Source: Caldora sp.
GTDB taxonomy: Bacteria > Cyanobacteriota > Cyanobacteriia > Cyanobacteriales > Coleofasciculaceae
Assembly (NCBI GenBank): GCA_965222765.1
Contig: CBDCVG010000043.1
Location: 33,053 to 97,052 of the forward strand
Length of the DNA: 64,000 nucleotides
Direction of reading: 5' to 3'
The first letter of the stretch is position 1, and the number at the start of each line of letters is the position of its first letter. Under the pieces are notes generated by a model. That model made no database searches and was not told the DNA's origin. It saw nothing but the letters and a program-made list of their open reading frames with translations. Positions 15,427 through 63,739 of this stretch are shown here, piece by piece. The translations under genes and the position numbers were made by a program.

Positions 15427-15442
15427 TGAGTGCCTGAGGGCG

Positions 15443-15488
15443 AATTAAGAATTAAGAATTAAGAATTAAGAATTAAGAATTAAGAATT
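15443..15488. repeat. STRR heptamer array (AAGAATT x6-7)
   Basis: aattaagaattaagaattaagaattaagaattaagaattg. Confidence 0.9.
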
Positions 15489-21057: not shown

Positions 21058-21687
21058 ATGGCTCAAGCCCAAGCAGAACCTCAACTATACAGCTTTGATG
21101 AATTTATCAGCTGGTACCCTGAAAACTCAGAACTCCGATACGAACTGCATGATGGAGTAATTATCGCAATGCCCAAGCCTAAGGGAAAACATTCAAATCT
21201 AACAGGTTCCCTTATCGAGCAACTGTTAATAACTATCCGGCAGATGGGCAAAGGTGGCATTTGGACTATTCCTAGAGAATCGATTGTCAAACCTAAACGC
21301 GAAAAATCAGGTTATGAGCCGGACATTATCGTTTTGAACCAAGAAGTTCTGGGAACCGAATCCCGATGGGAAAGCGAATCGATTATCCAAAATCCTGACT
21401 CAGTCAAATTAATTGTCGAAGTTGTTTCAACTAATTGGCGTGACGATTACTACAATAAACTTCGAGATTATGAAGAAATGGGCATTGAGGAATATTGGAT
21501 TCTCGATTACGCAGCATTGGGGGCGAGAAAGTTCATAGGTAACCCCAAGCAACCGACACTTTTTGTTTGTAATTTGGTTGACGGAGAATATCAAATGAAT
21601 CCATTTACAGAAAGCAGTCCTATTATTTCCCCAACTTTTTCCCAGTTCAACTTATCCGCACAACAAATTTTTGATCTGGCTTTGTAG
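21058..21687 (+). CDS. Uma2-family (DUF820) PD-(D/E)XK endonuclease
   Basis: YELHDGVII ... YEPDIIV ... EYWILDY, the hallmark Uma2 segments. Confidence 0.75.
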   Translation: MAQAQAEPQLYSFDEFISWYPENSELRYELHDGVIIAMPKPKGKHSNLTGSLIEQLLITIRQMGKGGIWTIPRESIVKPKREKSGYEPDIIVLNQEVLGTESRWESESIIQNPDSVKLIVEVVSTNWRDDYYNKLRDYEEMGIEEYWILDYAALGARKFIGNPKQPTLFVCNLVDGEYQMNPFTESSPIISPTFSQFNLSAQQIFDLAL

Positions 21688-21708
21688 GAAAGTTAAGTCA
21701 AATTGTCC

Positions 21709-21766
21709 ATTGATAATTGATAATTGATAATTGATAATTGATAATTGATAATTGATAATTGATAAA
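21709..21766. repeat. STRR heptamer array (TTGATAA x8)
   Basis: ttgataattgataattgataattgataattgataattgataattgataa. Confidence 0.9.
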
Positions 21767-21826
21767 TTTGTTCTAAGACCTCTTCTCTTCGTTGGCTAAA
21801 TTATCACAGCTTCAATCGATCACTAT

Positions 21827-25724: not shown

Positions 25725-25778
25725 GACGAAATTGACGCAGGGAAAAGGGAATGCTGGAAACAAGGAGACAAAGGAGAA

Positions 25779-25818
25779 ATTCTTAATTCTTAATTCTTAA
25801 TTCCCAATTCCCAATTTA
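25779..25818. repeat. STRR heptamers (TTCTTAA / TTCCCAA)
   Basis: ttcttaattcttaattcttaattcccaattcccaatt. Confidence 0.9.
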
Positions 25819-58579: not shown

Positions 58580-59623
58580 TTGTTGCTCCAGTTGATAAAG
58601 TGCTTGACTATTCTAGTAGCGCCCCATGGAGCAACCTTAGTGAATCTACTATTTAAGATAAAATTTATGAAATTACTAAATTCTAGTAAATTTTTGCCTA
58701 TAGGAATCGCCGCTATCGGTACTTTAGCTCCATTGAGCTTGGGGATTTCTCCTACTGCTGAAGCAGCATCTTTAAAAACAATCACAGCTTCAGCATTCGC
58801 ACAAACTCGTTCTAGCGATGCTGATTTTCCCTTCTTTTTTACGTTCTCTTTTCCTGATCAGCCGAGAACAGGGGCAACCGCTATAGCTGTATCTATTGCT
58901 GACACTTCTGTAGGAAGGGCGGATGCCTTTGCAAGTTCAACAGCTATACGAACTGCAACTGGTAATTTGTTCTTTTCAACTCAAGAGCGTCAGGAAATCC
59001 TGCGAAGGACTCCTGGTGCCTTGCAAGCTTTTGCTGTGACTAATGCAGATGCAGCACCGGATCCATTTGAATCTCCTGCTCTCCCCAATGTTGTTAATGA
59101 AGAGGGCACTCCTTTGTCTATGGAAGAGAAGTTTGAATCGGATCTGAATACATCTTTGGAAATTACGTTTAATGATGAAACAGACCAAATTTTATTTGAT
59201 TTTTTAGGTAGTGCTCTACTGAAAACTGAGGGTCTGTTTGCCTTTTCAACAGGTATTAGACTAGAGTCTGTTGGATTAGGACTCTTACGCTCGTTTACTA
59301 TCAATGAAAGTTTTGAACTCGCTTTTCAAGGAGGTTGGGGATTAGACGATTTGTCAGTTACGCAAGATAGAAGCTCTTTTTTTGCTGATTTGGACAATCT
59401 GGATTTTGCAATTCCCGTTGCTTCAGAATTTACCAGAGAAGATTTTCAAAATCTCGACTTTAGATTTAACGGCTCAGGTATTGTTGAAGCCGCTTCAGTT
59501 CCAGAACCAGCTTCTCTACTTGGTTTCCTCTCAGTGGGTATTATAGGTGCTGGTTCAGTAATTAGTAGGTTGCGTAGAAAAGATATGAGTATTAATCAAA
59601 AAGTACTGAATCTAAACGACTAG
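58580..59623 (+). CDS. PEP-CTERM (exosortase-sorted) secreted protein
   Basis: C-terminus VPEPASLLGFLSVGIIGAGSVISRLRRKD (PEP motif + TM + basic tail). The probable true start is MKLLNSSKFLPIGIAAIGTLAPLSLGISPTAEA (58637), which carries a signal peptide. Confidence 0.8.
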   Translation: MLLQLIKCLTILVAPHGATLVNLLFKIKFMKLLNSSKFLPIGIAAIGTLAPLSLGISPTAEAASLKTITASAFAQTRSSDADFPFFFTFSFPDQPRTGATAIAVSIADTSVGRADAFASSTAIRTATGNLFFSTQERQEILRRTPGALQAFAVTNADAAPDPFESPALPNVVNEEGTPLSMEEKFESDLNTSLEITFNDETDQILFDFLGSALLKTEGLFAFSTGIRLESVGLGLLRSFTINESFELAFQGGWGLDDLSVTQDRSSFFADLDNLDFAIPVASEFTREDFQNLDFRFNGSGIVEAASVPEPASLLGFLSVGIIGAGSVISRLRRKDMSINQKVLNLND

Positions 59624-59795
59624 CAGCAACCTTGAAGGAACCATATTGAGGTCGAGATGAAGAATAGTAGCCACGGCTAACTTGCGAGGGATAACAGTGA
59701 GAGTAGTTAAATCTTAATTGATGTCCACCATTGATCGTGGTCGCTTGATCCGCTGTAAGTTCTGTAAACAATGGATGTTTTCGATTAATTTTCAT
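59592..59795 (-). CDS. Candidate double-glycine-leader (bacteriocin/RiPP-type) precursor peptide, 67 aa
   Basis: Leader MKINRKHPLFTELTADQATTINGG (L-12, I-4, GG) then a 43-aa Ser/Tyr/Arg-rich core with one Cys. TATAAT and a weak RBS upstream. Overlaps 32 nt of the PEP-CTERM gene end on the other strand. Confidence 0.35.
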   Translation of the reverse strand: MKINRKHPLFTELTADQATTINGGHQLRFNYSHCYPSQVSRGYYSSSRPQYGSFKVAASRLDSVLFD

Positions 59796-60080: not shown

Positions 60081-60663
60081 TCACCTCGCCTCCAGAACCT
60101 GTGTAGCTGTCAGCCCCAATTCAGGAAAAGTCCGAGAGACAATCCGCTGATTGCCAGAAAACTCAGTTGCCTGATACCTACCATTCACCAACAGCAGTAC
60201 AATCACAACCTTTGCTTGAGGGTCAACAATCCAGTATTCAGGAATGCCCCGCTGCTCATACTGTAGGCGCTTCTCAACATAATCACGTTTGTAGTTCTCA
60301 TCCTTTTGGCTTCTGTAGGGGCTGACGACCTCAACAACTAACTGTGGGGGCGGCATATCGAGAGTGATAGTGCATCGTTTTTCGGGTTGGGTGAGATGCT
60401 CTTCCCTAATCACCACTAAGTCAGGGAAGCGATTTTGTCGCTTCCCAATTACTTGCAGTTCACAGCAATTAGTAGGCAAGACAAAACGTCGGTCAACCAT
60501 TTGGACTAATTCATCTCTTAGCCACAGGGACATCCAGATATTTCTTTTTGATTCTGGTGGCACTTCTACCAACTCCCCATCGAACAATTCATAGCGGTTA
60601 TCTGTGCCATCGTCATATTCGAGATATTGCTCAAAGGTCAGTTTTACTGGTGTGTGGGTCATT
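60081..60663 (-). CDS. Uma2-family endonuclease (third copy in window), translationally coupled to the upstream RHH gene
   Basis: YELFDGELVEV ... FPDLVVI ... EYWIVDPQ. The start was chosen at MTHTPVKL (ATG about 4 nt after the RHH stop) rather than the longer listed ORF. Confidence 0.7.
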
Positions 60664-60666
60664 TTC

Positions 60667-60870
60667 TTAGTTTTTTTGAGATTCACTTCTTTTGCCAAGC
60701 CAGTCGCTTACCAATTCAGAAATCACATCACTCATAGATTTACCCGCTTTTAGGCATTCAAGTTTGAATTCTTTCTTTATCTCCGATGGGACATAGGCGT
60801 TTATTTGTGAGAGTTTGCGTTTATCATCATTCATCCTTCTGAATTTCCTAAACCATGCATCTATGGTCAT
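60667..60870 (-). CDS. Ribbon-helix-helix (CopG/Arc/ParG-like) DNA-binding protein
   Basis: KRKLSQINAYVPSEIKKEFKLECLKAGKSMSDVISELVSDWL: beta-strand + two helices, the RHH pattern. Confidence 0.6.
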   Translation of the reverse strand: MTIDAWFRKFRRMNDDKRKLSQINAYVPSEIKKEFKLECLKAGKSMSDVISELVSDWLGKRSESQKN

Positions 60871-60882
60871 TGTCGCTTAGTC

Positions 60883-60950
60883 TGCTAGTCGTTAGCAAAG
60901 AAAGATGATGTGATGATTTGTCATTATGTCTGCTAATCATTATAATGACA
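60883..60950. promoter_or_regulatory. Two palindromic candidate operators in the RHH promoter/5'UTR
   Basis: Perfect palindrome tgctagtcgttagca (60883-60897). 9-bp IR tgtcattat ... ataatgaca (60919-60950) embedding a TATAAT. Confidence 0.45.
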
Positions 60951-60958
60951 GCATAGCT

Positions 60959-61014
60959 AAACGGCAATACCGTATCACTGAAACGGCACTATTGCCGGAA
61001 CAGCAAAACGGCAC
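60959..61014. repeat. Three iteron-like direct repeats AAACGGCA(C) spaced 22 and 26 bp apart, upstream of the RHH-Uma2 pair
   Basis: aaacggcaataccg ... gaaacggcactattgccgg ... aaaacggcacaac, followed by a T7 run. Confidence 0.5.
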
Positions 61015-61209
61015 AACTTTTTTTAGACAAAAAATGGCTGAAAATCAAGCACAGTAAGTAATAGAAGTACGGCACAGCAATGTGCTACCGCTACCTACCG
61101 CTACTACCCCGGCACAAGAGGTATTACCTCAAACCTATACCACAATTTCGTTCACCCAGTGTAGCCAGTGCAAGCGAGTAGAATCCCCGCTGCTGTTTTA
61201 CAGGGAGTG

Positions 61210-62640
61210 TCAAAATGATGCCTGTAAACCAATAGTTAACTGCCAATCAGTTTCCAGTTGGGGACCATCCAAAGATTGAACAAGAGGTAATGCAAACTCA
61301 ATCCCTAAGCGTGTTCCTTTGAGAGCACCACTGGGAGCATAGAGGTTCAACCCTAAACCTAAGTCTAACCGTTCACCACCCCGTAGATCCGGGTCTGCAG
61401 TGGGAATCATCATGGGATTGAGGAGAGGATCAGCTCCACTGATATTACCCAAAGTTTTGAAGTCAAGCCGCAATGAAGTACTGAGCCAATCTACCCATTT
61501 ATTAGCAATCCAGCCTGTGAGATTAAATTGATCTCCGAGCTGATAATCATTACTATTTTCTCCCAAGCGGACTATAGCACTTCCCTGAGCTCCCCAAGAA
61601 AACTTATCTACCTGACCTAAGTAAGTAATACCAGGTCGCAGATCAAAAGTACCAGAGCCAATCTGCATCGGATACGGTAGCCTCACATTGTTACCTGCTG
61701 GCGTATCATCTCGCTCGTCAATTGAGCCAGTAGGAAAACTCATCCCTAGATTAAAGTGCAAGCGCTGTCGATTTTGACGCAGGACGTTGTAAAGTGCTGT
61801 CAGCTGAAGGTCACCAAATCCTTCTGAATTGGTGGTAAAGTTCACCCCTGTACGGGTAAGGTGATCCATCTCCTTCAAGACATAAGGAACCATCACCATC
61901 AAGGTAAGATCATCTGTTGGAGCATACATTCCCCCAAACATGTGCATTTCCATGTCCATGTCAGTCGGAGTCACAGGAAACTGCTGCAAAACTTCCTGAT
62001 CACTTAGATCCTCAGTACCATCCCGGTTCCCATCCATCCTCATGAACATATAACGGTAGGAAAACATAAACTCCGCCGCTTGATGAGTATGCTCCCCCAT
62101 CACACTAATAGGAGCATGACCATCCGGTCGAGCTGAAGTCCATTGGAGCTCACCACTACCAGAGTTACTCCCATCATTACTATCACTCAATAAGAGATTA
62201 AAATTGTCAACATTCTGGACTGACAAAGTAGGGAAAATATCCTGCTCATTCCGTTGTACTGATAAAGTCGTCGAGGTTAGAGATGGTAGCTCATCAGGGG
62301 TAATGCCAATAGTAGTAGCCTCTAATGGTTCAGCAACCGACTCTGTAATTGCTGTAGTTTGGTTCGTTAAAACCTTTTCACTAACTGATCCAGGGTTATT
62401 CAGTTCAGGTGGTGGGTTTTTACCAATCTCGATCGTATTAATTGGTAAGAGTGCTTCTGCTGTTAACTTGGTAGTTAACTCACTAGTCGTCTCGATAGTA
62501 GCAGTTGGGGGTAAATTGTTTATAGGTACTGAGTTATCTTTAGTGACGGAATACTCTGCTAGCTCAGCCTTAGTTGTTGCTGAACAACTCAAGAAAATTC
62601 CTAGCGTAACTAAACTAATTTGGCAGTAATTCCACTTCAA
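61210..62640 (-). CDS. Outer-membrane beta-barrel protein (MetA-pathway/'transporter' PF13557-like), signal peptide, C-terminal Phe
   Basis: N-terminus MKWNYCQISLVTLGIFLSCSATTKA. C-terminus alternating hydrophobic strands ending ...QLTIGLQASF. Confidence 0.55.
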   Translation of the reverse strand: MKWNYCQISLVTLGIFLSCSATTKAELAEYSVTKDNSVPINNLPPTATIETTSELTTKLTAEALLPINTIEIGKNPPPELNNPGSVSEKVLTNQTTAITESVAEPLEATTIGITPDELPSLTSTTLSVQRNEQDIFPTLSVQNVDNFNLLLSDSNDGSNSGSGELQWTSARPDGHAPISVMGEHTHQAAEFMFSYRYMFMRMDGNRDGTEDLSDQEVLQQFPVTPTDMDMEMHMFGGMYAPTDDLTLMVMVPYVLKEMDHLTRTGVNFTTNSEGFGDLQLTALYNVLRQNRQRLHFNLGMSFPTGSIDERDDTPAGNNVRLPYPMQIGSGTFDLRPGITYLGQVDKFSWGAQGSAIVRLGENSNDYQLGDQFNLTGWIANKWVDWLSTSLRLDFKTLGNISGADPLLNPMMIPTADPDLRGGERLDLGLGLNLYAPSGALKGTRLGIEFALPLVQSLDGPQLETDWQLTIGLQASF

Positions 62641-62795
62641 GGGGCAAACCTCTTATCAAAAGAAGGAAAGGTTAAAGATTAGTTAAGTACCTTAGTGGGG
62701 TCTGCTGCCTGAGTCAAAAGACAAATTGTCACAGTTGGTAATAATACCAGTTAAAATGTAATGACCCTGAATCAGTTATTGCGGCTACTCTACCT

Positions 62796-63002
62796 ATGTT
62801 TGAAGGCTTTTGGGAAAACGTCTTGCGCTATCCCCGCTACATGATTAGCATCATTTTCGGCATCTTCTATTCGTTCTTCTTGTGGTTTAAACCACTTCTA
62901 GATCGTCCTGTAACTGCGATCGCACTCATACTTATGATAGTGGCAGGTTTCTTTTTCATTACTTTTACCCTTCGTGCCATGCTAGGGCTAAGTTCAGTTT
63001 AG
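62796..63002 (+). CDS. Small two-TM membrane protein (conserved hypothetical) upstream of rbfA
   Basis: Two hydrophobic helices, ORF only. Confidence 0.45.
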   Translation: MFEGFWENVLRYPRYMISIIFGIFYSFFLWFKPLLDRPVTAIALILMIVAGFFFITFTLRAMLGLSSV

Positions 63003-63044
63003 ACTAGAACAATAAACTGCCCATATTGTTAGCAAGGGGGCATT

Positions 63045-63446
63045 ATGGCTACCAATCGCCGTATTTCTCGAGTGTCTTCCCTAATTAAGCAGGAAGTCAG
63101 TCAAATGTTATTAAGCGACATCAAAGATGATCGTGTAGGTGCTGGGATGGTGAGCGTCACGAATGTAGACGTTTCTGGAGACCTCCAGCACACAAAAATC
63201 TATGTGTCAATTTATGGCACTGACGAGGCAAAGGCAGAAACTATGGCGGGATTAGAGTCTGCCACGGGTTATGTCCGCCGGGAATTGGGTAAACGCATCC
63301 GCTTACGCCGTACACCAGAGGTCAAATTTATTGAAGATAGAGGTCTCGAGTATAGCGATCACATGATGACATTGCTCAATCAGCTCTCTCAGGAGCGTCA
63401 GAACAAAGAGCTCAATCATGCTGCTATATCTGAGCAGGAAGACTAA
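63045..63446 (+). CDS. rbfA: Ribosome-binding factor A
   Basis: [18 protein letters not shown] ... [50 protein letters not shown]. Confidence 0.9.
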
Positions 63447-63739
63447 TTAGGGTTGGCTGAATAAGTCAAATGGGAGCATTTGAGGAAGTAAAAATTAAGC
63501 TCATCCCACGACTAAAGTACGTGGGATTTCGCGTCATTAGTCATTAGTCATTTGTCCTTTGTACTAATGACCAATGACAAAGTGGGAAATTTCCTCGAAG
63601 CCTGACAAGTTGGAGGAGATTTCCCGCTTTTTGTGAGCTCAGCGTATTGTATACTTATTTGCTTGTCGGGGGGATAATTCATGAATTGCCTCTCTAGGTG
63701 ACATAACTGCTAGGCAATTTTTGCAAGGTCTTTCTTAGC

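Follow-up and report, generated by a model that had tools for sequence, protein, structure and literature searches.

Why should the gene for a small ribbon-helix-helix (RHH) protein lie directly in front of the gene for a Uma2 nuclease, and do the two depend on each other? The question is raised by a 64,000-nt stretch of a Caldora sp. contig (positions 33,053 to 97,052 of CBDCVG010000043.1, GenBank assembly GCA_965222765.1), which we call the window and number from its first letter. An initial annotation of this DNA had proposed an autoregulated RHH–nuclease pair, either toxin–antitoxin-like or a relic of a plasmid or of an integrative and conjugative element. Our analysis favors a form of the second alternative. 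The segment 60081–61159 is probably a remnant of a plasmid or integrative element from cyanobacteria that has decayed within a Symploca-like chromosome. The RHH protein would be a ParG/CopG-like repressor of its element family, and the Uma2 nuclease would be a passenger.

According to the list of open reading frames (ORFs) and a Pfam scan of the window, the minus strand carries both genes. A 67-aa RHH ORF had been described as ending about 4 nt before the ATG of a Uma2 gene. The gap is indeed 4 nt, between the RHH stop codon TAA (60669–60667) and the Uma2 ATG at 60662, and the Uma2 assignment is borne out by a Pfam score of 112.5 bits against a cut-off of 27 (E 2e-32) and by 236 bits to the PADLOC single-gene candidate PDC-S03. 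The RHH assignment also holds, as the ORF at 60667–60870 matches Pfam ParG (PF09274) with 28.9 bits against a gathering score of 21.4, with RHH_1 (PF01402) just under threshold at 19.7 bits against 20.5. Its length does not. The second methionine, at 60834, is the start in all 18 database homologues, and the ATG at 60870 that opens the longer frame is ATA in the five closest relatives (loci L001–L005); therefore the real RHH gene encodes 55 aa. The genes and boundaries of the locus are as follows.

60081–60662, minus strand: gene for a 193-aa PD-(D/E)XK nuclease of the Uma2 family (PF05685/COG4636), from Pfam, PADLOC and the active-site residues
60667–60834 including the stop codon, minus strand: RHH gene, 55 aa, MNDDKRKLSQINAYVPSEIKKEFKLECLKAGKSMSDVISELVSDWLGKRSESQKN, from the Pfam ParG match, a profile match to PDB sequences and the homologue starts
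60835–60870, minus strand: non-conserved 5' extension of the 67-aa ORF, leader rather than coding, ATA in L001–L005 and absent from homologues
61034–61159, plus strand: pseudogene stub found by tblastn, codons 1–42 of a divergent 277-aa gene, codon 8 being an in-frame TAA (61055–61057)
61209–61212, no strand: chromosomal synteny breakpoint, placed by the end of the match to Symploca sp. SIO2C1

The relatives of the RHH protein bear most directly on its role. Genomic contexts were examined on the contigs that encode eight RHH protein clusters; the family sample comprises 18 clusters. Seven of the eight, 68–80% identical to the window protein, have no Uma2 gene behind the RHH gene, and the sole cluster that does is P0001, whose protein is 100% identical to that of the window and is found on five other contigs (L001–L005). 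In six of the Uma2-less clusters (P0005, P0006, P0007, P0013, P0014 and P0017, 68–80% identical), the RHH gene heads an operon of small ORFs, with a divergent promoter region or operon at the RHH gene in five of these six. For P0005, P0006, P0014 and P0017, the fetched sequence extends to a protein of 1137–1304 aa; the P0013 and P0007 loci stop short of any large protein, the latter after two small ORFs. In P0002 (80% identical), 240 nt of non-coding DNA separate the RHH gene from the next gene, which is unrelated. The large protein of locus L025 (1177 aa) matches the NCBIfam family "plasmid replication protein, CyRepA1 family" with 482.7 bits and shares 47–51% identity with the Rep proteins of numerous cyanobacterial plasmids, and an integrase lies near the RHH operon there. 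That of L020 is a D5_N/Pox_D5 primase-helicase, and those of the remaining two clusters have no family match. A more distant relative (44% identical), annotated as ParG, sits 230 nt upstream of a DUF3854 gene on plasmid pMIC7113.07 of Allocoleopsis franciscana. In L001 itself the order is RHH, Uma2, a 266-aa gene that overlaps the Uma2 stop codon, a 138-aa gene and a protein whose homologues occur solely on cyanobacterial plasmids. From these plasmid-type contexts, we infer that the RHH gene opens a replication or early operon of plasmid type, to which Uma2 was added in one sub-lineage. The placement as first gene of a rep operon is seen in L025, L020 and pMIC7113.07; the operon of the window breaks off behind Uma2. 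Two proteins of the divergent operons (137 and 268 aa), scanned directly, matched no Pfam family. A phage origin finds no support from tblastn against 50,697 phage records, which gave no match, or from PHROG, which had none for the RHH protein.

Only a piece of such an element is present in the window. The DNA similarity to L001–L005 is confined to approximately 60081–61143, ending on one side at the Uma2 stop codon, and homology to L001–L004 runs out at approximately 61143–61159. This fragment of 1.08 kb comprises the stub of the divergent gene, the intergenic region, the RHH gene and Uma2. In tblastn, the 277-aa protein of L003 matches the window with 71% identity over residues 1–42, where the match stops; the ORF list reads the start of the stub as MAENQAQ followed by the stop codon. 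Matches to element proteins in the 64-kb window are limited to the RHH protein and this 42-codon stub, and the window has no tRNA genes. The flanks are ordinary chromosomal genes, encoding a MetA-type outer-membrane protein, DUF751, RbfA, TetR and a Rieske protein. A contig of Symploca sp. SIO2C1 (L112) is 95% identical to 61209–63449, with more matches to 64000. The identity reaches exactly as far as the stop codon of the gene for the MetA-type outer-membrane protein (61210–62640), and beyond that point SIO2C1 has a pyridoxal decarboxylase gene and neither RHH nor Uma2. Thus, the RHH–Uma2 module abuts a synteny breakpoint. The stub, the ends of homology, the break at 61209 and the plasmid-type relatives together back the proposal of a plasmid- or element-derived relic.

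The properties of the RHH protein itself are as follows. A profile of the family, compared with PDB sequences, matched ParG of TP228 best (1p94, E=1e-4), with SvtR and CopG-type antitoxins weaker; precomputed Pfam results added weak matches to PF10723. An AlphaFold monomer model (pLDDT 79) has helices at residues 17–30 and 34–54 and a low-confidence helix, not a strand, at residues 3–14, and a G31-K-S33 turn between the helices can be read off the sequence. The top Foldseek matches of this model are all RHH proteins (MatP, RelB, VapB, CopA, AtaR and Arc), none of them significant. Approximately 8 residues precede the predicted strand, a short N terminus that is common to the homologues. In RHH-class type II antitoxins such as RelB, ParD and CcdA, a C-terminal extension binds and neutralizes the toxin. 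The window protein ends 8 residues past helix B and therefore lacks such a tail. Its gene differs from that of L001 by 7 synonymous and 0 non-synonymous changes (synonymous divergence dS 0.27, non-synonymous divergence dN 0), a pattern that indicates strong purifying selection on the protein. Polarizing the 7 synonymous differences by outgroups gave an ambiguous result.

Conservation extends from the protein into its leader. Approximately 110 nt from the −10 element to the RHH start codon are strongly conserved in all RHH loci, and the sequences upstream of the −10 are unrelated. The features of this region, predicted or proposed where so described, are these.

60939–60967, minus strand: predicted RHH promoter from a consensus scan, −35 TTGCCG (60967–60962), 17-nt spacer, −10 TATAAT (60944–60939)
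60918–60946, plus strand: predicted face-to-face promoter of the divergent gene, TTGTCA (60918–60923), 17 nt, TATAAT (60941–60946), 11/12 in the scan
60864–60943, minus strand: leader box array of approximately 80 bp, the proposed RHH operator, from its 8-nt register and cross-locus conservation
60899–60908, minus strand: leader segment TCATCTTTCT, a predicted anti-Shine-Dalgarno element (RNAalifold)
60831–60840, minus strand: AGAAGGATGA, a Shine-Dalgarno-like purine run plus the RHH start codon, predicted 3' partner of the anti-Shine-Dalgarno element (RNAalifold)
60919–60950, no strand: 9-bp inverted repeat TGTCATTAT-N14-ATAATGACA (arms 60919–60927 and 60942–60950), enclosing TCATTATAATGA and TATAAT, from a palindrome scan
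60959–61013, plus strand: three exact AAACGGCA direct repeats, at 60959, 60981 and 61006, by exact match

The predicted RHH promoter has 10 of 12 matches to the sigma-70-type consensus, and its −10 is kept as TATAAT, TATACT or TATAGT in most aligned loci (TATCCT in L006 and L008). It shares 4 bp with the predicted −10 of the divergent gene, inside the 12-bp palindrome TCATTATAATGA. The array consists of approximately ten CTAG/CAAG-nnGA units in 8-nt register: three direct, two inverted (GTCAT) and three direct. Two direct repeats of 23–25 nt in the leader (60942–60918 and 60894–60870) lie 48 nt apart, and the same spacing turned up each time when the window, L006, L016 and L020 were analyzed separately. 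The same conserved array is also present in RHH clusters without Uma2. The OF operator of ParG is built of eight degenerate boxes with an 8-bp period, direct and inverted, each bound by one dimer (PMC3130281). Because of this likeness, we propose that RHH dimers could coat 60864–60943 and repress both promoters. The operator is likely the conserved leader array and not the palindrome to which it had been assigned; the idea of autoregulation is itself retained. The array overlaps the predicted −10.

The palindromes and upstream repeats fared unevenly under closer examination. A perfect 15-bp palindrome had been reported, but the palindrome scan of 60860–61220 found none, the longest being the 12-bp TCATTATAATGA (60937–60948) and the 13-bp GAGGTAtTACCTC (61118–61130). 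The reported 9-bp inverted repeat around TATAAT is present but not conserved, with 6-bp arms remaining in L001–L005 and no counterpart in other family members. The three direct repeats were correctly seen; they are exact copies of AAACGGCA spaced by 22 and 25 nt within the 199-nt divergent intergenic region, and both strands of the whole window hold 5 copies against 1.6 expected, 3 of them within 55 nt. The proximal copy overlaps the −35 of the RHH promoter, and CGGCAATA (60962–60969) and TATTGCCG (60990–60997) form an 8-bp inverted repeat. L001–L005 retain the proximal copy of AAACGGCA, a degenerate middle copy and a distal copy with 1 mismatch, and the spacing is altered there by expansion of an 11-nt tandem repeat, GACGCGGTAGT, between the AAACGGCA-type repeats (4 copies in L001, at approximately 205–260, and in L004, 2 in L003 and none in the window). 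The AAACGGCA motif is absent from other members of the RHH family. The repeats are thus real and non-random yet poorly conserved, so that an iteron role is unproven. Four other loci (L009, L016, L020 and L022) carry two TTGCGGATGC-like copies (TTGCGG(A/C/T)TGC), approximately 35–40 nt apart and 100–200 nt upstream of the RHH gene, the same relative position as the AAACGGCA repeats in the window. The GCGGTAG repeats found farther upstream sit within the pseudogene stub and encode LPLPTATT.

Two observations on these motifs may be added. The TTGCGGATGC-like copies may be sites for a second regulator or a Rep protein. Further, GAGGTAtTACCTC, in the stub, is replaced in L001–L004 by GAGGCAgTGCCTC (L001, approximately 56–68), where two symmetric substitutions keep the 6-bp arms; it is possibly what had been taken for a 15-bp palindrome and may be a hairpin or binding site at the edge of the conserved block.

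The leader may also act as RNA. RNAalifold predicts a 10-bp helix between TCATCTTTCT and AGAAGGATGA, in which one pair covaries, being C-G in 5 sequences and U-A in 4, and 93% of alignment cells are paired. Taken together, the four predicted leader helices have 94% of their cells paired, compared with less than 55% in controls with slid partners, and the fold of the single sequence has z = −2.3. The alignment holds 12 sequences from few lineages, and U-rich and purine-rich strands pair easily by chance. Such a layer, in which the ribosome-binding site and AUG of the RHH gene would be masked, is suggestive only. Rfam gave no match; its PreQ1 model scored below threshold at 60661–60695 on the minus strand (23.4 bits against a gathering score of 39), and a riboswitch across the RHH stop and Uma2 start was rejected, the A-rich sub-threshold match being most likely due to chance.

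If the RHH protein belongs to the element, what of Uma2? By its sequence, it is an ordinary member of its family. The residues of the PD-EXX-K motif, as defined for Uma2/COG4636 (PMC551604), are P80-D81, E111 and K131 and are invariant in the Uma2 alignment; the conserved histidine of the family is Asn41 in the subfamily of the window protein. A homologue with a solved structure is 9y1l (E=1e-12). The clade is large, with 3807 proteins at E <1e-20, and a single genome of Symploca, Caldora or Moorena carries many paralogues. The closest homologues are 85–86% identical proteins from Symploca that share its catalytic residues; their genes are solitary, with housekeeping genes around them, and such paralogues are evidently tolerated without the RHH protein. 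By comparison, the Uma2 proteins behind the identical RHH protein in L001–L005 are 63–66% identical to that of the window. This difference clusters in nucleotides 111–308; over this stretch, the similarity of the window gene is to the solo paralogues. Paralogues compared across the window, L001, L003, L026 and L028 have near-identical DNA at their ends (approximately 110 nt at the 5' end and 270 nt at the 3' end) and diverge sharply in codons ~37–103, the similarity being bounded by the start and stop codons. This pattern points to an exchange among paralogues of a variable segment (approximately residues 37–103), where target specificity may lie, between conserved ends. We considered whether the mosaic reflects diversifying selection on the RHH–Uma2 pair and rejected this, as it is common to the whole paralogue subfamily.

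A survey of Uma2 genes for an upstream RHH gene, which the initial annotation had recommended, was run on 80 metagenomic Uma2 loci and found this RHH at 0 of 80. The small ORFs upstream of other Uma2 genes were not RHH-like; they included one PIN domain, one integrase fragment and one DUF5838. Sixteen of 66 Uma2 genes lie no more than 60 nt behind an unrelated ORF on the same strand, and tandem crowding is therefore a habit of the family. The window contains a second Uma2 paralogue (21058–21687, plus strand; 28% identical, with histidine at the Asn41 position); a 592-aa gene precedes it by 31 nt, and it too is without an RHH gene in front. For Uma2 biology, these results are mostly negative: there is no general RHH partner, in agreement with the published view of Uma2 as a likely solo toxin seldom linked to antitoxins (PMC2701414).

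Other neighbors of Uma2 genes were seen in passing. In L104, a PIN-domain (VapC-like) gene (1558–1971) ends 30 nt before Uma2 (2001–2582); Uma2 genes beside toxin–antitoxin components have been described in Synechocystis (PMC4963859). On two Allocoleopsis plasmids, pMIC7113.04 (L110, 10152–12284) and pMIC7113.07 (L111, 1–1533), Uma2 genes follow a TIR-domain gene at a distance of 18 nt and adjoin a site-specific integrase, defence-island-like surroundings that are consistent with the PADLOC label PDC-S03.

These elements can be assembled into a mechanism. Most likely, RHH dimers would coat the ~80-bp array from the −10 into the 5' leader, and this coating would shut off the promoter of the RHH gene itself together with the overlapping divergent promoter. 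The leader hairpin over the ribosome-binding site and AUG could provide additional translational control. In one sub-lineage, a Uma2 gene would have arrived directly behind the RHH gene. Given this position, and its origin in a massively expanded, selfish-looking family, we regard Uma2 as a probable co-transcribed passenger, possibly translationally coupled to the RHH gene, rather than as a cognate toxin.

Other explanations of the same locus must be weighed against this one. A toxin–antitoxin-like role for the RHH–Uma2 pair, as first suggested, is unlikely, since Uma2 is missing from seven of the eight RHH clusters and the RHH protein has no toxin-binding tail. The related suggestion that the RHH protein is a dedicated partner of Uma2 is not supported either, in view of the 0 of 80 loci and of the 85% homologues and second window paralogue that do without it. 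A subtler version would have the RHH protein restrain a toxic Uma2 by transcriptional repression alone, like the C protein of a restriction–modification system or an antitoxin that works only as a repressor. Loss of the RHH gene would then be lethal, and the survival of just these two genes in an otherwise decayed element would be accounted for. Much in the locus could be read this way: the gap of 4–5 nt in the window and L001–L005, the intactness of both ORFs and the predicted promoter next to a nonsense-bearing stub, the absence of amino acid change in the RHH protein at dS 0.27, and a junction kept in three downstream contexts, even after exchange of the Uma2 variable segment. The plasmid origin would suit it too, as addiction modules are common on plasmids, and Uma2 is both a proposed toxin (PMC2701414) and a PADLOC defence candidate. 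But the RHH protein, stopping 8 residues past helix B, has no neutralization domain, its proposed operator is conserved all the same in the seven clusters without Uma2, paralogues that share 85% identity and the catalytic residues with the nuclease sit alone behind arbitrary genes, and this RHH was at none of the 80 Uma2 loci. On balance, we consider such an addiction or controller cassette unlikely.

The two other possibilities concern the RHH gene and its upstream DNA rather than Uma2. The RHH protein could be a centromere binder of the ParG type, as in type Ib partition systems, with the AAACGGCA copies, the array or both serving as partition site or iterons in a relic of a partition or origin region. 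Its top Pfam and PDB matches are to ParG, its plasmid homologues are annotated as such, the box array of ParG doubles as operator and centromere (PMC3130281), and direct repeats occur upstream, three exact ones here and a two-copy TTGCGGATGC-like repeat of their own in four other element types. It is hard to reconcile with this idea that no ParA-type Pfam match appears in the precomputed listings for the genes adjoining RHH in the window or the fetched loci. Moreover, ParG contacts and stimulates ParF through a flexible N-terminal tail of approximately 30 residues (PMC3130281), for which the ~8 residues before the predicted strand leave no room, AAACGGCA is degenerate in the nearest relatives and absent elsewhere, and the RHH gene of the relatives heads an operon that runs toward a large replication-type protein. 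We judge this explanation quite improbable. Still less probable, to the point of being a long shot, is that a cis-acting RNA, either a hairpin sequestering the ribosome-binding site or a target of an antisense RNA, drives the conservation of the leader, with a minor role or none for the RHH protein. The 10-bp helix that takes in the Shine-Dalgarno element and AUG, its one covarying pair, the 94% pairing against less than 55% when slid, and the z of −2.3 would agree with this, as would the precedent of plasmid pSYSA, where the small gene upstream of CyRepA1 works largely at the RNA level (PMC9978351). However, direct repeats in an 8-nt register are not explicable by RNA pairing, the helices come from those 12 sequences of few lineages, whose U-rich/purine-rich pairing is easily kept by chance, Rfam has no match, the pSYSA protein Ssr7036 is not homologous to the RHH protein, and the latter is itself under strong purifying selection.

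Some observations nevertheless weigh against the fragment-and-passenger account. RHH and Uma2 are both intact, while adjoining element genes are lost; the RHH protein shows dN 0 at dS 0.27 relative to L001; and the junction between the two genes persists in three differing downstream contexts (window, L001 and L003). An intact pair, dN 0 and a persistent junction are also what is expected of an addictive pair. Part of the leader conservation could stem from an RNA function and not from protein binding. The N-terminal β-strand is not formed in the AlphaFold monomer model, although this is not unexpected because the β-ribbon of RHH proteins arises solely in the dimer. Finally, the family sample is small, at 18 clusters, because searches of the larger collections came back empty. 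The GTDB representative genomes gave no confirmed RHH match by protein alignment or by a degenerate DNA pattern; IMG/VR gave no confirmed protein match and a lone DNA-pattern match (L024), which lies inside an 861-aa ORF and is due to chance; and the JGI contig collection gave 0 matches with the leader pattern, a pattern that does match the window and 15 of the 24 loci fetched by then.

Three aspects of the locus are of modest use. The RHH gene with its leader is a previously undescribed, well-conserved regulatory head shared by plasmid-like or integrative elements of cyanobacteria, one of which at least is of CyRepA1 type, and combines a 55-aa ParG-like RHH protein with a putative 8-bp-periodic operator and leader. 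Such elements might be recognized by this RHH-plus-array head, which could also be built into cyanobacterial vectors as a compact repressor/operator part. The locus is also a clear case of a probable plasmid fragment that became fixed where chromosomal synteny breaks. Lastly, the segment exchange among Uma2 paralogues indicates where their target specificity may lie. Should the controller account prove true instead, the pair would be a minimal addiction cassette that has outlived its plasmid, and the first tractable Uma2 switch, through which the target of these nucleases, and the reason for their expansion in cyanobacteria, might be found.

Elsewhere in the window, a 67-aa ORF at 59592–59795 on the minus strand (MKINRKHPLFTELTADQATTINGG followed by HQLRF...) resembles a double-glycine leader peptide of the type found in precursors of bacteriocins or ribosomally synthesized and post-translationally modified peptides, and has no Pfam match. 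It overlaps the 3' end of a 347-aa ORF on the opposite strand (58580–59623), which matches no Pfam family and has a PEP-CTERM-like C terminus. Tandem repeats with a 7-nt period at 15442–15488, 25778–25804 and 21701–21782 match intergenic repeats of SIO2C1 and look like a dispersed family of cyanobacterial short tandem repeats.

How does this system compare with those already known? ParG of TP228 (1p94) is the best sequence match, and both are small plasmid-borne RHH proteins. As in ParG, the gene lies downstream of approximately 8–10 short boxes of 8-bp period that overlap its own promoter, here a predicted one. The boxes are of CTAG/nnGA type, in contrast to ACTC in the ParG OF operator. There is no adjacent ParF/ParA gene in the Pfam listings, the protein has 55 aa against 76 aa and no long flexible tail, and the operon of the relatives leads to a replication-type protein rather than being a partition operon.

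CopG of plasmid pMV158 offers another analogy. In copy-number repressor systems of the CopG/RepB-RCR_reg type, as here, a very small RHH protein comes first in a rep operon and is the presumed repressor. The Rep proteins differ, however, being CyRepA1/DUF3854 or D5-type primase-helicases and not the rolling-circle RepB of pMV158. Unlike in CopG systems, several small ORFs separate RHH from Rep, and a long periodic array stands in place of a 13-bp pseudosymmetric element. The ssr7036/asRNA1–slr7037 region of pSYSA in Synechocystis 6803 likewise has a small gene with a leader of approximately 100 nt upstream of a CyRepA1-family Rep, and is controlled by an antisense RNA and RNase E (PMC9978351); homology of the RHH protein to Ssr7036 (64 aa, no Pfam family) was considered and rejected, as the two share no sequence or profile similarity.

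With the RHH-class type II antitoxins (RelB, ParD, CcdA and CopG-type VapB), the locus shares an RHH domain upstream of a putative toxin and operator-like repeats; it departs from them in having no C-terminal toxin-binding extension and no conserved co-occurrence with Uma2, in either direction. The Uma2 protein is a typical member of the solo-toxin, selfish PD-EXX-K family Uma2/COG4636 (PMC551604, PMC2701414). What sets it apart is its position, behind a plasmid RHH gene rather than behind a housekeeping gene or another Uma2.

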